Source: Spirochaetia bacterium
GTDB lineage: Bacteria > Spirochaetota > Spirochaetia > SP-2023
Assembly: GCA_965225855.1 (NCBI GenBank)
Contig: CBDDCK010000004.1
Span: 224,001-288,000 of the forward strand
Reading direction: 5' to 3'
Length of the DNA: 64,000 nucleotides
The notes under the pieces were generated by a model. That model searched no databases. It was not told where the DNA came from and saw nothing but the letters and a program-made list of their open reading frames with translations. Below are positions 2,291-9,464 of this stretch, piece after piece; within the stretch, counting starts at the first letter, position 1, and each line of letters starts with the position of its first letter. Position numbers and translations under genes: made by a program.

Positions 2291-3541
2291 CTATTTGGAT
2301 TTTTGCATGATAACAATATATTCATGGTTCATTGTGGTTGCTTTCTTTCCCGTTTGATTTGTAGGGCTATTTTTGCTTGGCATTCTTTTATTGGGTATAT
2401 TTCTAATAAAAATATTTTTATATTCAAAGCCATGTTCTTGAAATAAACATTTGGTTATTTCGTCTGTTGGCAATACCGTATCCTTTACTTTTCTATTGCC
2501 AACCACATAGCAAGCATATCCGCCTGGCTTAATTACATTGGCAACATTGGCAATAGATTTGCTATAATCTGCATAAAAACTATAAATTTCTTTGGCCCTT
2601 TTTTCGTCTTTGTGAGCAATCTCTTGGATAGTAGTATCTATAATATCAAGTCTTGTTGCTTGAATATTTTTCTTTTTGCCACCCAATAATTGGTTATCTA
2701 TTTGGTTGGCACGTTCCATGCCAAGCCACTGGTTGGACAAACGAGAGAATTGACCATAGGCAACTGTGGTCCTGCTATCCCCATAAGGTGGGGAGGTTAC
2801 CACTAAATCAATAGAGTTTTTATCTATTTCTTTGATATTTTCTGCGGAATTAAAATTATAAATATTTGCTGTAATGCCTTCTTTTGCCTTTTGATTATAG
2901 CTCTTTAGCCCGATTCGATTCCTAGCCAGTTTACTATTGATCATACCAAATACATCGGGACGAAATTTTTCCCTTTGTTGTTCTGGCATTCTATACAATT
3001 TAAATTCACTATTTCTGGTAAAAGAACTTTCTCTAATTGTTTCACTAAATGCTACCCAAAAAAATTTTTTAATTGGTTCATTTTGAATATTGTCTATAAA
3101 ATGTTTGATATTTGTCAGCTTATCTTTTATATCTTTGCGAAACCAAAAATCAATATTGTTGAAATGAACGGCAACGATATTCGGTTCTTTGGGAATGCCA
3201 TAGCTCAATGAAAATAAAAAATCGTTAAATTCTTTTAGGTACAAGTCCAGTATTTGTAGTTCTATTTTGGTTGTTTTTGCTTGCGCTATCAGTCTAGCCA
3301 TTGGGTTTAAGTCGGTTCCTATGGAATTAATACCCATTAAGCTTGCTTCCACAAGCGATGTTCCTGTGCCACAATATGGGTCAAAAAGTGTATTGGCTGC
3401 TTTACCGTATAAATCAATAAGCCTATGAGCTATTTGAGGTATCATCATTGCCGGATAATTGTGATAGCAATGGGTATATTGTTTGGTATCGGCGGTTTTA
3501 AAATCCCAAGTATTATCTACATATTTTTTACAGCTATTCAT
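2291..3541 (-). CDS. Site-specific DNA methyltransferase, N4-cytosine type (M.MvaI-like)
   Basis: SAM-binding motif DPYCGTGT and catalytic TSPPY; the start overlaps the stop of the adjacent endonuclease (3538-3541). Confidence 0.88.
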   Translation of the reverse strand: MNSCKKYVDNTWDFKTADTKQYTHCYHNYPAMMIPQIAHRLIDLYGKAANTLFDPYCGTGTSLVEASLMGINSIGTDLNPMARLIAQAKTTKIELQILDLYLKEFNDFLFSLSYGIPKEPNIVAVHFNNIDFWFRKDIKDKLTNIKHFIDNIQNEPIKKFFWVAFSETIRESSFTRNSEFKLYRMPEQQREKFRPDVFGMINSKLARNRIGLKSYNQKAKEGITANIYNFNSAENIKEIDKNSIDLVVTSPPYGDSRTTVAYGQFSRLSNQWLGMERANQIDNQLLGGKKKNIQATRLDIIDTTIQEIAHKDEKRAKEIYSFYADYSKSIANVANVIKPGGYACYVVGNRKVKDTVLPTDEITKCLFQEHGFEYKNIFIRNIPNKRMPSKNSPTNQTGKKATTMNHEYIVIMQKSK

Positions 3542-4223
3542 ACGGCAATATCTTCTATCTTGTGGAATAATAAAGGTAGTTTATCCTCGAATATTCTAAA
3601 GCCTGTTCCATGGTTTCTTGCCCTTGTTTCTTTGTCATGTAAGCGAAGATCAACCAATAAATTGCCAGTTTTAAATAGCTCAGCTAGTAAATCTTGATTT
3701 GTTTGCCTCATTAATTGAGCTCTATAAAAATGAAAATATTCTATACCAGCCCTTTCTTCTGTATGTACCGATACAAGTAGTAATGCCGGATTTTCTGTGC
3801 AAACCTTTGTGCAAGAACAGATAATGACCATATTGCTATAACTTGACCAGATATATGCTGAACAGATATTTGTGTTTTATCTACTTTTAAAAATAGACCT
3901 GCACTATTTGGTGTTAAAGACATCGTGTAATACATTCCAAGCCTTCCATTACTATCATTGCTACCATATCGCTTGATCGCTTCCAAAGGATTCATTTGCC
4001 ATGCTTTATTATTGAAAGTAAAAAGCGTAATCATACTATTAGAATTGTCTCTATGAGCTTTAATTTCAATATTATCAATATCAGGTAATGCTAGATTATT
4101 CTCGTCTATACCCATTAAAGTTTCTAATGTAAGTCCGATTCCCGTTGGACCTTTTCTAAGCGATCTTACAAAACCTTTGTTTTTTAATTCTCGAAATCTT
4201 TGGCTAAATTCTTGTAAATCCAT
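3538..4223 (-). pseudogene. MvaI/BcnI-family type II restriction endonuclease, split by one frameshift near 3786-3791
   Basis: ORF 3741-4223 has GPTGIGLTLE…ENN..PD…EIK; ORF 3538-3831 has the family C-terminal NHGTGFRI. One added base joins …AQKI to PALLLV…. Confidence 0.85.
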
Positions 4224-6187: not shown

Positions 6188-7360
6188 ATGACAATTTATT
6201 TATCTATAGGAATGATTTTTACCATATTATTAGTTACTTATATTCTTATACGATGGGGCAATTTGCGCTTAGAAGGCTCCAAACCATTGGGCTTGTTTAC
6301 ATTTACTGCTGTTTTATTTACATCTGGTTTAGATGTAGGTTTAATTATGTTTCCTCTAACTGAATTTCCTGTATATGCAGACCTTGCCAATGCCGTAGAT
6401 TATGGTTTTACCAATCCTTTAGCTATAGAGTTTGGCTTTTGGGGGTTTCTAATTTGGGCTCTGTACTTTTTGACTACATTTTATTTTTGTGCAATTGAAC
6501 CCAAAGTATTATTTTTTGAGATTCCGCTTATTAAGTGGATTAACAATTTTGTGATTATCACAACTTGCGCTTTAACTGGTCATTTATTTTTAATCAATTT
6601 GCCTTGGTATTTGCCAATGGTGGGAGATGGAGAAACCATTGGGCCAGTATTCTACGCCATTGTATTTGGTACAATCGTATTGGCAACTTTATCTTCAACG
6701 CGTATGCGCTATGTGCGGATTTTATCGGTAGCTTCTGTTGCCCTATTTACTATACTAACGCTTGTTATGTGGTTTAGTTCTGGTATGGGCTTTGGCGGTA
6801 TGGTAGAAAATTTGGCCTTACTGGGAGACTACTTTGCCAAGTTAAATAAATTTATTTTGCCGTTTAATGACTATCATCAATTTTATTTATTTTGGTGGTT
6901 TTCTTGGTCTATCATGATAGGCCAATTTGTATCGCGTTTTTTAGGTGGGCTTTATACTTATCAGTTATTGCTGGCAATGTTGGTTATTCCATCTATTTCA
7001 TTGGCCATTTGGTTTTCTGTCCTGTACTACTACCATGTTCAAGAAATTAGTATTGTGCAGTTTAATATTGTGATGGCATTTGTAGGCACTTTATTTGTAA
7101 TCAATTCGCTAGATTCTTTGATCCGTTTATATACCGATAATATGAATTTTACTTTTAAACGCATAAGTAAAACAAAATATGGTGCTGTAAAATATATTGT
7201 AGGGAATGTTGCAGCATTGTGCACTTTAGGTTTATTATTTCATTACGGCTACTTAAGTGCTGAAATTGTAGGATCGATTGTCATAGCTATTTTCTTTATT
7301 TGCACTGTTTATATTTTAAAAAGCAAACGCAGAGAAATTCAAGATATTGGCACGAGATAG
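6188..7360 (+). CDS. BCCT-family (betaine/carnitine/choline) transporter, short form
   Basis: 'LFTSGLDVGLIMFPL' and 'FYLFWWFSWSIMIGQFVSRF' correspond to BCCT signature segments. Confidence 0.8.
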   Translation: MTIYLSIGMIFTILLVTYILIRWGNLRLEGSKPLGLFTFTAVLFTSGLDVGLIMFPLTEFPVYADLANAVDYGFTNPLAIEFGFWGFLIWALYFLTTFYFCAIEPKVLFFEIPLIKWINNFVIITTCALTGHLFLINLPWYLPMVGDGETIGPVFYAIVFGTIVLATLSSTRMRYVRILSVASVALFTILTLVMWFSSGMGFGGMVENLALLGDYFAKLNKFILPFNDYHQFYLFWWFSWSIMIGQFVSRFLGGLYTYQLLLAMLVIPSISLAIWFSVLYYYHVQEISIVQFNIVMAFVGTLFVINSLDSLIRLYTDNMNFTFKRISKTKYGAVKYIVGNVAALCTLGLLFHYGYLSAEIVGSIVIAIFFICTVYILKSKRREIQDIGTR

Positions 7361-7428
7361 CCTTAAAGCATAAATTAAAGAGATTCACAAATTCTCACAA
7401 AAAATTATTCATTTTCTTGTTTAGTCGC

Positions 7429-7456
7429 TTGACAAAGTTTTGTTGATTCAAATAAT
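7429..7456 (+). promoter_or_regulatory. Sigma-70-type promoter for the leader/cystine transporter transcript
   Basis: TTGACA (7429-7434), 16 nt spacer, AATAAT (7451-7456). The predicted +1 falls at or just before the leader ATG (7465). Confidence 0.55.
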
Positions 7457-7464
7457 GTTAGAAT

Positions 7465-7521
7465 ATGATTACTTTACACCTTGCAAATTGTTGTTGCCAC
7501 TGTCTATCGATCAGGAGGTAG
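7465..7521 (+). CDS. Cys-rich leader peptide MITLHLANCCCHCLSIRR (18 aa)
   Basis: ATG at 7465 to TAG at 7519-7521, with TGT TGT TGC CAC TGT at 7489-7503. Lies between a promoter and a terminator upstream of a cystine transporter. Confidence 0.85.
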   Translation: MITLHLANCCCHCLSIRR

Positions 7522-7566
7522 TTGCGTCTATGTGTATATAATGGCTGTATTTTCGTATTAACCAAT

Positions 7567-7603
7567 AAGGCTACCTTTATCAAGGTAGCCTTTTTTATTT
7601 TTT
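7567..7603 (+). terminator. Attenuator terminator in the 5' leader of tcyP
   Basis: Perfect inverted repeat aaggctacctt-tatc-aaggtagcctt (7567-7592) followed by a T-rich tract; upstream of the RBS (AGGAGA, 7620-7625). Confidence 0.9.
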
Positions 7604-7629
7604 ATTCACTACAATTTTTAGGAGATATT

Positions 7630-9060
7630 ATGATTGCATTACTTTATTTATCGATAGCTTTTGGCTTGACTGGTATATTTATTGCCCATCGAAAGCAATT
7701 TAGCTTTTCCGTTCAAGTATTCTCGGCATTGTTAGCGGCTATATTGTTAGGCTGGCTCATTAATGTATTGCACAATAATTGGGCCATAGAAGCATCTGCA
7801 TTTAAGAACTGGATAGCATGGCTCAATTTTCTGGGGTACGGTTATGTAGACCTGCTGCGTATGGTTTCCATACCACTGATTATGATTTCTATTATTAGTG
7901 CTTTGGTAAACATCAATTACAAAGAAGATAAAGTGCTTAAAACGGTACTCATTATTTTGGCCACTCTGTTAATTACAGTGGTTCTTGCGGCTTTGGTTTC
8001 ATTGGTTGTTTCAGTGTTTTTGGGCCTAGATTCTTCTTCTCTAACGCCGGACGAAAAGAAATTGGCCAATTGGCAAGGGCGTATTAGTAAAATTGAAAGT
8101 GTGCCCGGGCTATTGCGTAGCTTATTGCCGAAAAATCCCTTTTTGGATATGACTGGCCAGCGCAGTTCTTCTATTGCAGCGGTTGTGATATTTAGCTTGT
8201 TCCTTTCTTGGGGATATTTGAGTTTGGATAAAGATGAGCGCAATGCCCAGCACTTAGATAACTTCCGCAATAGTGTCAATGCCTTACAAAAAGTGATTAT
8301 CAGCATGGTACGCAATGTATTAAAATTAACGCCCTATGGTGTTTTTGCGATTATGTTGCGTGTGGCTTCCAGTACCAATTTTGCTGCTTTACAAGAATTG
8401 GGCAAGTTTATAGCGGCTACTTATGTGGCACTTGGGCTAGTCTTTATTTTGCATTTGATCATTATTGGCTTGTTTGGTTATTCGCCCATTACTTATGTGA
8501 AAAAAGCTTGGCCCACATTGAGCTTTGCTTTTACTTCTCGTTCTTCAGCGGGCACGCTGCCATTGACGATTGAAACTCAAGAGCAAGCATTTGGTGTGAA
8601 AAGTAGCGTTGCTTCTATATCTTCTTCGTTAGGGACAACTATAGGGCAAAACGGTTGTGCTGGCGTATGGCCTGCCATGCTGGTTGTGATGATTTGGAAT
8701 GCCATTGGCCATAATATTGGTGTTTTGGACGTGCTTAGCCTGGTTGGGGTAATCTTAATATCTTCGCTTGGTGTTGCCGGTGTTGGTGGCGGTGCAACCT
8801 TTGCTTCTATTATGGTATTGAGTACTTTGGGGCTTAGCGAGCATTTGGCATTGGCTGTTGTACTCACTTCAATAGAATCCATTGCCGATATGGGGCGGAC
8901 CTTGGTCAATGTTTCAGGTTCTATGGTTTCGGGCTTGGTAACGGGGCGCATTACCAATGGAGTCGATCTAAGTATCTACAATAGCCAAGACAGTCAGGAG
9001 GATATCGTGGAGAATATTGCCAAAAAGAAGGGTAACAATGGGTGGACAACGAAAGCGTAG
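7630..9060 (+). CDS. tcyP: L-cystine:cation symporter (DAACS/SDF family, TcyP/YdjN type)
   Basis: FAFTSRSSAGTLP, GTTIGQNGCAGVWPAML (TcyP-subfamily signature), GVAGVGGGATFA, DMGRT. Start moved to ATG 7630, which follows AGGAGA. Confidence 0.85.
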   Translation: MIALLYLSIAFGLTGIFIAHRKQFSFSVQVFSALLAAILLGWLINVLHNNWAIEASAFKNWIAWLNFLGYGYVDLLRMVSIPLIMISIISALVNINYKEDKVLKTVLIILATLLITVVLAALVSLVVSVFLGLDSSSLTPDEKKLANWQGRISKIESVPGLLRSLLPKNPFLDMTGQRSSSIAAVVIFSLFLSWGYLSLDKDERNAQHLDNFRNSVNALQKVIISMVRNVLKLTPYGVFAIMLRVASSTNFAALQELGKFIAATYVALGLVFILHLIIIGLFGYSPITYVKKAWPTLSFAFTSRSSAGTLPLTIETQEQAFGVKSSVASISSSLGTTIGQNGCAGVWPAMLVVMIWNAIGHNIGVLDVLSLVGVILISSLGVAGVGGGATFASIMVLSTLGLSEHLALAVVLTSIESIADMGRTLVNVSGSMVSGLVTGRITNGVDLSIYNSQDSQEDIVENIAKKKGNNGWTTKA

Positions 9061-9094
9061 TAAATTTGTTTAGTGTTTTTATATTTTCCAGTAA

Positions 9095-9143
9095 AGCCGT
9101 GGGGGAGCTTACAAAGCCTAGGGGCCCTGCGGCTCTCTTTTTT
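9095..9143 (+). terminator. Probable terminator after tcyP
   Basis: agccgtggg…cctgcggct stem (with G-U pairs) followed by ctctttttt. Confidence 0.45.
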
Positions 9144-9180
9144 ACTTAAAGTGAGAAAATTTATTCTAGGTATATGCCCA

Positions 9181-9464
9181 AAGTTATTTGTGTATATCAC
9201 CCAAGTTCTTCCCGTATTTAGCCGAGGCGCGAACCGTGAATTACCCGAGCAATTCACGCAGATAACTTTGCTTATTTTTATGCTGCGGTTGAGCAAGCCG
9301 TTCGGCAACAGAATATACCAGTTGTCTTGGGCTTTGGCGTTAAAGGGTCCACCGAAGTGCGCCAGCTTTGTGAGTTTGCCACAGGTTTTGTGATTGGTAC
9401 AGTTGCAGTCAAGCTGCAAGGAAATTTAATTGAGTATCGTAAATTTCTTGCATCGTTATCTTAG
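9181..9464 (+). pseudogene. trpA: Remnant of tryptophan synthase alpha chain (C-terminal third)
   Basis: One frame reads KLFVYITQV…GANRELPEQF; the shifted frame reads AVRQQNIPVVLGFGVKGSTEVRQLCEFATGFVIGTVAVK…*, resembling TrpA 'PVxVGFGI…ADGVIVGS'. Confidence 0.55.

Follow-up and report, generated by a model that had tools for sequence, protein, structure and literature searches.

We analysed a 64,000-nucleotide (nt) stretch from a Spirochaetia bacterium (GCA_965225855.1, contig CBDDCK010000004.1, contig positions 224001-288000), hereafter the window, to which coordinates refer unless a contig is named; the source genome measures 2.7 Mb and is 94% complete. Upstream of tcyP, a transporter gene, the window contains what is best read, with fair confidence, as a cysteine-sensing, ribosome-mediated transcription attenuator that would turn tcyP on when charged Cys-tRNA is scarce. 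The element covers ~140 nt and its parts follow one another as promoter, leader open reading frame (ORF), antiterminator strand, terminator, Shine-Dalgarno (SD) site and tcyP. A sequence-only reading made earlier had named these parts and proposed this mechanism, and each part was found in place:

7429-7456, forward strand: promoter reading A, TTGACA (7429-7434), a 16-nt spacer and AATAAT (7451-7456), 11/12.
7465-7521, forward strand: leader ORF of 18 codons, MITLHLANCCCHCLSIRR, from ATG at 7465 to TAG at 7519-7521, with no SD site.
7489-7503, forward strand: sensor codons TGT TGT TGC CAC TGT, giving Cys9, Cys10 and Cys11 (7489-7497) and Cys13 (7501-7503).
7509-7523, forward strand: antiterminator strand, with its core at 7514-7523 and an extension at 7509-7511, running across both Arg codons and the stop codon of the leader.
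7567-7603, forward strand: intrinsic terminator, a perfect 11-base-pair (bp) hairpin (7567-7592) plus U tract (T4-A-T6), -15.6 kcal/mol.
7620-7624, forward strand: SD site of tcyP, AGGAG, -7.3 kcal/mol against the anti-SD sequence.
7630-9060, forward strand: tcyP, starting with ATG and encoding a 476-amino-acid SDF/DAACS transporter (PF00375, E 5e-85) with the motif IGQNGCAG.

The run of Cys codons exceeds chance and is our strongest single result. Dinucleotide shuffling of the 269-nt intergenic region upstream of tcyP produced an ORF of 5-50 codons that began with ATG and had four Cys in five codons in 2/5000 cases, and such a frame without the start-codon requirement in 9/5000. Across the genome, four Cys in five codons occurred in one of 1049 upstream regions, which is the tcyP leader itself; relaxing the pattern to four in six added one region, and three in six gave 10. 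The nine other short ORFs in the genome with three or four Cys in six codons precede unrelated genes, and the tcyP leader alone has a Cys run among 85 pairs of a short ORF and a terminator. The leader carries a run of codons that specify the amino acid of the downstream TcyP-clade gene, and an intrinsic terminator lies between the leader and this first gene, its hairpin 27 nt before the SD site. No promoter that leaves the tcyP SD site intact was found 3' of the hairpin, by promoter scan or by eye, so tcyP RNA must cross the terminator.

The 5' arm and loop of the terminator (7569-7581) form the target of the antiterminator. The pairing of 7514-7523 with 7569-7578 that had been proposed (six Watson-Crick and four G-U pairs) was recovered exactly as the best single helix, and the minimum free energy antiterminator kept nine of these 10 pairs and joined 7509-7511 to 7579-7581 in the terminator loop (-14.0 kcal/mol). 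A helix as strong was seen in 26/3000 shuffles, and one that was as strong and started within 7510-7528 in 5/3000. Applied to 143 distinct terminators, the same test ranked tcyP joint best (1/150 shuffles); just four terminators reached 2/150 or lower, and a single repeat accounts for two of the other three. Weighed with an ensemble-energy test that was not significant and is described below, this result lends the antiterminator moderate support. The protector (1:2) helix that folding prefers pairs 7494-7498 with 7517-7521 and 7483-7486 with 7522-7525 (-9.7 kcal/mol over 7463-7530). It thus involves the Cys codons themselves (7494-7504 with 7509-7521), rather than 7468-7481.

Folding with and without ribosome masks, which the sequence-only reading had suggested as a check, gave the correct sign, subject to an equilibrium caveat for nascent ends beyond 7589-7590 that is taken up below. 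We folded growing transcripts from which the 5' part had been removed as if covered by a ribosome. Stall masks reaching 12 nt beyond Cys9, Cys11 or Cys13 gave the antiterminator a probability of 0.97-1.0 at nascent ends 7580-7587; for the most intrusive mask (15 nt past Cys13) it was 0.55-0.99 at the same ends. A mask to 7519 reduced this probability to 0 and the terminator formed at the first opportunity. For the ribosome-free transcript, in which the 1:2 helix competes, the antiterminator fell from 0.78 to 0.27 over ends 7580-7587 and the terminator took over earlier (0.46 at 7586, 0.96 at 7588). The modelled sign is that of a trp-type attenuator, with a stall leading to the antiterminator and a ribosome at the stop codon, or none, leading to the terminator.

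The transporter belongs, on sequence criteria, to the TcyP clade: it has the SDF domain and an NGCAG-type motif and groups with TcyP-named proteins in a 33-row tree (a 100/100 clade, separate from NMDG-type DAACS proteins). Within this tree it falls in a distinct four-member clade, P0001-P0004. The nearest homologues among the matches listed were P0002 (89% identity), P0003 (MEM9423971.1; 71%) and P0004 (61%); the other 116 matches listed were 42-48% identical, those with names being mostly 'L-cystine transporter' or TcyP, and the closest named transporter homologue is labelled Spirochaetota. This points to L-cystine as the likely substrate. A 512-amino-acid frame starting with TTG at 7522 was considered as the true tcyP start and rejected: the TTG lies 3 nt after an AGGAGG, the frame crosses the terminator and the orthologues begin at the Met at 7630.

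Uptake is probably the main source of cysteine for this organism, because cysK/cysM had no match in the 94%-complete genome and cysE a single weak, partial one, compared with the presence of both cysK/cysM and cysE in genus mates G001 and G002. Judged from this gene content, cysteine auxotrophy is likely. The genome also encodes two full-length PF01053 enzymes, and its cysS lies close behind another gene, without a Cys leader. A third genus mate, G003, likewise has no cysK match; its tcyP is 38% identical, sits on a long branch and has no Cys leader upstream (locus L004, G003:C1:2110735-2115066). It is possible, going by these sequences, that tcyP was acquired twice, separately, in one genus.

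From the layout we infer the following course of events, an inference that extends to the start site, to translation and stalling, and to the kinetics and the response. Transcription would start at ~7463-7465, and a ribosome would initiate on the leader ATG without an SD site. When cysteine is plentiful, the ribosome would run to the UAG and cover 7514-7523, the 11-bp terminator would form and the RNA would end at ~7596-7600. When Cys-tRNA is limiting, a ribosome stalled on codons 9-13 would disrupt the 1:2 protector and free 7509-7523, which would pair with 7569-7581 ahead of synthesis of the terminator 3' arm; this kinetic trap would let polymerase enter tcyP. In the absence of translation, the 1:2 helix would compete, giving termination by default. 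This mechanism fits best the combination of the Cys run, the TcyP-clade neighbour, a rare and well-placed helix, the sign of the masked folding and the lack of a promoter past the terminator.

Several observations weigh against this reading, and initiation on the leader is its weak step. The leader ATG lacks an SD site (+0.2 kcal/mol against the anti-SD sequence, versus -7.3 for the tcyP SD site), and no in-frame ATG, GTG or TTG lies between it and the Cys codons. Promoter reading A, top-scoring among the 11 promoter-like sites found in 6800-9400, is predicted to start transcription at ~7463-7465 and to give a leaderless mRNA or one with a 2-nt leader (leaderless mRNA is treated in PMC9031893, accessible text). 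The genome shows no clear leaderless signal: among 570 genes without an SD site, TANNNT occurred 30-32 times at -14 and -12 versus 12-36 times elsewhere. The sequence-only reading listed a promoter and overlooked both the missing SD site and a rival promoter:

7456-7464, forward strand: promoter reading B, extended -10 TG-n-TAGAAT, read from sequence.

Reading B is predicted to start transcription at ~7471, 3' of the leader ATG. Genome-wide counts weakly support both promoter types: spacers of 16 nt occurred 57 times, versus 14-49 for spacer lengths apart from 16 and 17, and TG at the extended -10 offset 783 times, versus 600 at a control offset. Readthrough from the upstream gene could be an alternative way to supply the leader ATG in RNA.

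Folding adds further points of this kind. The ensemble-energy test, which asked how well the terminator arm pairs upstream, was not significant (216/2000 shuffles; rank 29 of 151 terminators); the single-helix test was devised after it, and the antiterminator fold had a z-score of -0.17. At equilibrium the terminator (-15.6 kcal/mol) beats the antiterminator (-14.0 kcal/mol) under every mask once the nascent end passes 7589-7590. Antitermination must therefore be kinetic, by trapping.

The sequence-only reading had suggested aligning related tcyP leaders. Among relatives, a single low-depth contig that starts 3' of the Cys codons shows the terminator, preserved by a compensatory change, and none of the 29 distant tcyP genes examined had a Cys run upstream. 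Four sequencing runs were aligned to 7100-8100, with pieces shown at a minimum of 80% identity, and two records were useful. Record 7 of run X5 is a 151-nt contig (depth 2.1) in which 46/54 letters match 7515-7568, followed by a variant terminator; the binomial probability of this match is 6e-5 to 0.05 at neutral identities of 0.60-0.75, for a piece that was itself selected by the 80% cut-off. Read by eye, its hairpin changes 7569/7590 from G-C to A-U and 7572/7587 from U-A to U-G and has an altered loop, and 7570-7578 is unchanged. An unchanged 5' arm beside an altered 3' arm would fit a 5' arm that has two pairing partners. The change at 7569 would make U7523 pair as U-A instead of U-G, provided that U7523 is kept. 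This single contig, beginning past the Cys codons, is all that the relative contributes on the element. Record 1 of run X3 comes from a relative that shares ~82-84% identity over the two flanking genes and keeps their order; it has 294 letters between the genes instead of 313 and an intergenic stretch that does not align at 80%.

Searches further afield found no second case. A Met-led short ORF with Cys codons was present in 0/29 upstream regions of distant tcyP genes examined (from 51 other class matches at E 1e-60), and a Cys leader was likewise absent from the 30 cysK loci examined (164 genomes matched) and from JGI loci (0/12). At cysK locus L121, a Met-led Cys match was rejected, lying out of frame inside the upstream gene. 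A pattern of three Cys codons plus T6 gave 51 matches in five order mates, and the 30 loci examined held no intergenic ATG-led leader with a terminator; a DNA search with the leader in three genus mates returned chance-level matches only. Nor did the source genome yield another convincing leader-peptide attenuator. The antiterminator-plus-terminator pattern had no match in JGI metagenomes or in viral contigs, and a scan of GTDB with the transporter protein returned one locus, 44% identical, without a Cys leader. No Cys leader was found upstream of cysK or cysS in G000-G004 (the source genome and its mates). The P0001-P0004 clade had no member besides the source genome in the sampled order (six genomes), class (401) or phylum (401), and the JGI contigs contained none either. 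The element looks, from these sequences, confined to a small clade.

Of the alternatives, the one that survives best, though we consider it unlikely, is a terminator/antiterminator RNA switch worked by an RNA-binding protein, a small ligand or an antisense RNA and transcribed from the extended -10 promoter, with the Cys codons incidental or a relic. The TG-n-TAGAAT motif with a purine at +7 (7471), the genome-wide enrichment of TG at that offset, the missing leader SD site and the fact that the conserved part visible in the relative is the RNA part (7515-7592) all favour it. It leaves unexplained why a run of four Cys in five codons, rare in shuffled sequence with or without a start codon, should precede a cystine transporter, and no Rfam family reaches its cut-off in the leader. 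The Rfam scan of the window gave no match at the gathering score, and T-box (RF00230) had none in the genome or the window. A scan of 7300-7700 at E ≤10 gave 11 sub-threshold matches, mostly on the hairpin; among them, Phe_leader reached 25.4 bits of the 55 required and covers the terminator part only. The z-score of the whole-leader fold (-0.81) was uninformative.

Still less probable is a constitutive, leaky terminator, belonging to the transcript of the upstream gene or to a small RNA, with tcyP expressed by basal readthrough, any regulation acting at initiation, and ORF and helix present by chance. The upstream neighbour is:

6188-7360, forward strand: BCCT-like transporter gene; a relative shows the same order of this gene and tcyP.

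This gene has no strong terminator directly 3', terminators 200-300 nt behind genes are unexceptional here (10/64 within 300 nt), the ensemble test of the antiterminator was not significant and the terminator dominates at equilibrium. Against these, the Cys run, the position of the helix and the identity of the transporter would all have to coincide, an 11/12 promoter lies between the BCCT-like gene and the hairpin, and a perfect 11-bp terminator 27 nt ahead of the SD site would cripple an importer that is probably essential.

A last alternative involves a second short frame:

7530-7541, forward strand: mini-ORF reading Met-Cys-Ile-stop; the antiterminator strand's AGGAGG precedes it by 11 nt.

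That the leader ORF is translated and senses something other than Cys-tRNA (metal binding by HxxxCCCHC, thiol redox in the exit tunnel or action in trans), or that the mini-ORF is the real sensor, is the least probable account: Cys/His clustering does resemble that of metal-binding peptides, and AGGAGG is a perfect SD site (anti-SD duplex -11.6 kcal/mol) 11 nt before the ATG at 7530, but a mini-ORF ribosome would cover the antiterminator strand, so that a Cys stall there would raise termination, the opposite of what an importer needs. In addition, Cys13 lies just five codons ahead of the stop, an arrangement shared with codon-sensing leaders, and the neighbouring gene encodes a predicted cystine transporter. 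The mini-ORF is probably incidental. Runs X4 and X5 carry A7538G, which would turn it into Met-Cys-Met-stop and a predicted A-U pair into G-U.

Two further features of the leader ORF deserve description. It is in frame with tcyP, and its TAG (7519-7521) is the sole stop between them, with none through the terminator; stop-codon readthrough into tcyP was considered and is unsupported despite the shared frame. The leader start also resembles the tcyP start: 7455-7476 and 7625-7646 form a 22-nt direct repeat (16/22 letters, 73%), and MI-x-L, followed later by LSI, is common to the two N-termini. On this resemblance, the leader may derive from duplication of the gene start; alternatively, the likeness may have arisen by chance in AT-rich DNA.

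The attenuator proposed for tcyP shares features with several known systems. In claiming novelty, the sequence-only reading overstated its case: a Cys-containing upstream ORF with an intrinsic terminator, uORFC-8-2, had already been predicted before cysS in Rhodobacterales (145 representatives; a prediction only, in the text available; Brewer et al. 2021, PMC8632094). As described there, uORFC-8-2 resembles the tcyP leader in its clustered Cys codons, a first stem that holds them, a terminator with a U run and a proposed readthrough on Cys-tRNA shortage. It differs in having two tandem Cys at codons 14-15, cysS as target and an alphaproteobacterial host, as against four Cys in five codons, a transporter, a spirochaete and no SD site. 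The tcyP leader is outside uORFC-8-2 by location, being upstream of tcyP and not of a Rhodobacterales cysS; the two probably originated independently and are set apart here by their descriptions. No follow-up to the uORFC-8-2 prediction turned up in the open-access literature.

The tcyP leader has the layout of trpL, hisL, thrL and pheL, with a promoter, a leader ORF with cognate codons near its end, 1:2, 2:3 and 3:4 helices (the first two predicted for tcyP) and a U tract, followed by the regulated gene (10.1101/834739, accessible text). Unlike these, it would sense Cys and control an importer rather than biosynthesis, without an SD site. Attenuation by cysteine upstream ORFs was stated to be previously undescribed by Canestrari et al., who showed a translational mechanism in mycobacteria (10.1101/834739, accessible text); the mycobacterial case is still termed translation attenuation in the text seen of PMC13236596, and actinobacterial Cys leaders without terminators are described in PMC1262725 (available part). 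The Ms5788A-type mycobacterial small ORFs and the actinobacterial leaders resemble the tcyP leader in having a short poly-Cys first ORF that is probably leaderless, and the likeness would extend to the sensing of charged tRNA-Cys (accessible text of 10.1101/834739 and PMC1262725). The mycobacterial ORFs hide an SD site, termination was excluded for Ms5788, and conserved terminator hairpins are lacking (10.1101/834739, same text). In the tcyP leader, by contrast, the switch partner is a terminator, and the competing helices end at 7592, with the SD site at 7620. It is thus outside the mycobacterial polycysteine translational class. It is also outside the T-box family: a Cys-specific T-box has the same input (uncharged tRNA-Cys) and the same output (antitermination), going by the accessible text of PMC2566862, whereas the tcyP leader is too short, has an ORF instead and gave no RF00230 match.

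For the transporter, the available text of PMC12830385 assigns Borrelia BB0729 to TcyP by homology and phylogeny, and BB0729 and tcyP are alike in DAACS family, TcyP clade and NGCAG motif. The tcyP described here stands apart from the BB0729 type in its separate P0001-P0004 clade, and the distant spirochaetal tcyP loci examined have no Cys leader. Leader peptides are known from Proteobacteria, Actinobacteria and Firmicutes (PMC2965389, accessible text, where 'spirochaet' is not mentioned). The accessible text of PMC10319736, on Borrelia 3' ends, mentions neither cysteine nor cystine, and a text search of PMC11109978, as available, was without hits. No leader-peptide attenuator from a spirochaete turned up in open-access PMC and bioRxiv text, a search that did not cover subscription papers and supplements.

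Elsewhere around the element, the BCCT-like protein (6188-7360) is short (390 amino acids) and divergent, just above the Pfam cut-off. The genome contains a Rho gene, and a hairpin scan identified one further feature downstream of tcyP:

9121-9136, forward strand: terminator-like hairpin 3' of tcyP.

On the minus strand of the window, 2291-4223 holds a DNA methyltransferase-like ORF (416 amino acids), ahead of which lies a restriction-enzyme-like gene split into two frames (160 and 97 amino acids), both judged by eye. Outside the window, on the minus strand at G000:C4:328192, a TTGACA-led short ORF with six Thr in 19 codons is followed by a terminator, and TAGAAT abuts its ATG as in the tcyP leader. 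A Thr attenuator was rejected, no same-strand gene following it, and a small RNA or peptide gene is possible. Near it (C4 ~329000-329400, minus strand) is a frame of 135 codons, seemingly short or broken, that we take from its motif to be ammonium-transporter-like. Identical 37-nt stem-loops form a repeated intergenic hairpin family (C1:131133, C5:174595, C5:4022 and C5:1452545), and other hairpin families occur too. In genus mate G001, locus L155 (C4:1367895-1370983) contains regular 36-nt repeats with unique spacers and is CRISPR-array-like.

The tcyP leader is a variant, in its transporter target, its spirochaete host and its probably leaderless start, of a textbook mechanism and introduces no new principle; that one genome and one fragment carry it limits the surprise. 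We put forward tentatively, and regard as rather doubtful taken whole, a fuller reading in which a single small spirochaete lineage evolved a new attenuator on its cystine importer after loss of cysteine synthesis, leaderless, sensing Cys and working by terminator and antiterminator. It would be the first leader-peptide attenuator known from Spirochaetota, and also the first in which leaderless poly-Cys sensing of the mycobacterial kind is combined with an intrinsic terminator of the trp kind. In the papers found, to the extent of their accessible text, classical transcription attenuation by cysteine has been predicted only (Rhodobacterales cysS), and the poly-Cys system that has been shown is translational (mycobacteria). 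Being compact, with all parts in view and testable by reporters, the element could give the first demonstration for cysteine. If true, it would add spirochaetes to the groups with leader-peptide attenuation, and the lack of it in genus mates suggests that switches of this kind arise anew, once biosynthesis has gone, on the importer of a nutrient.

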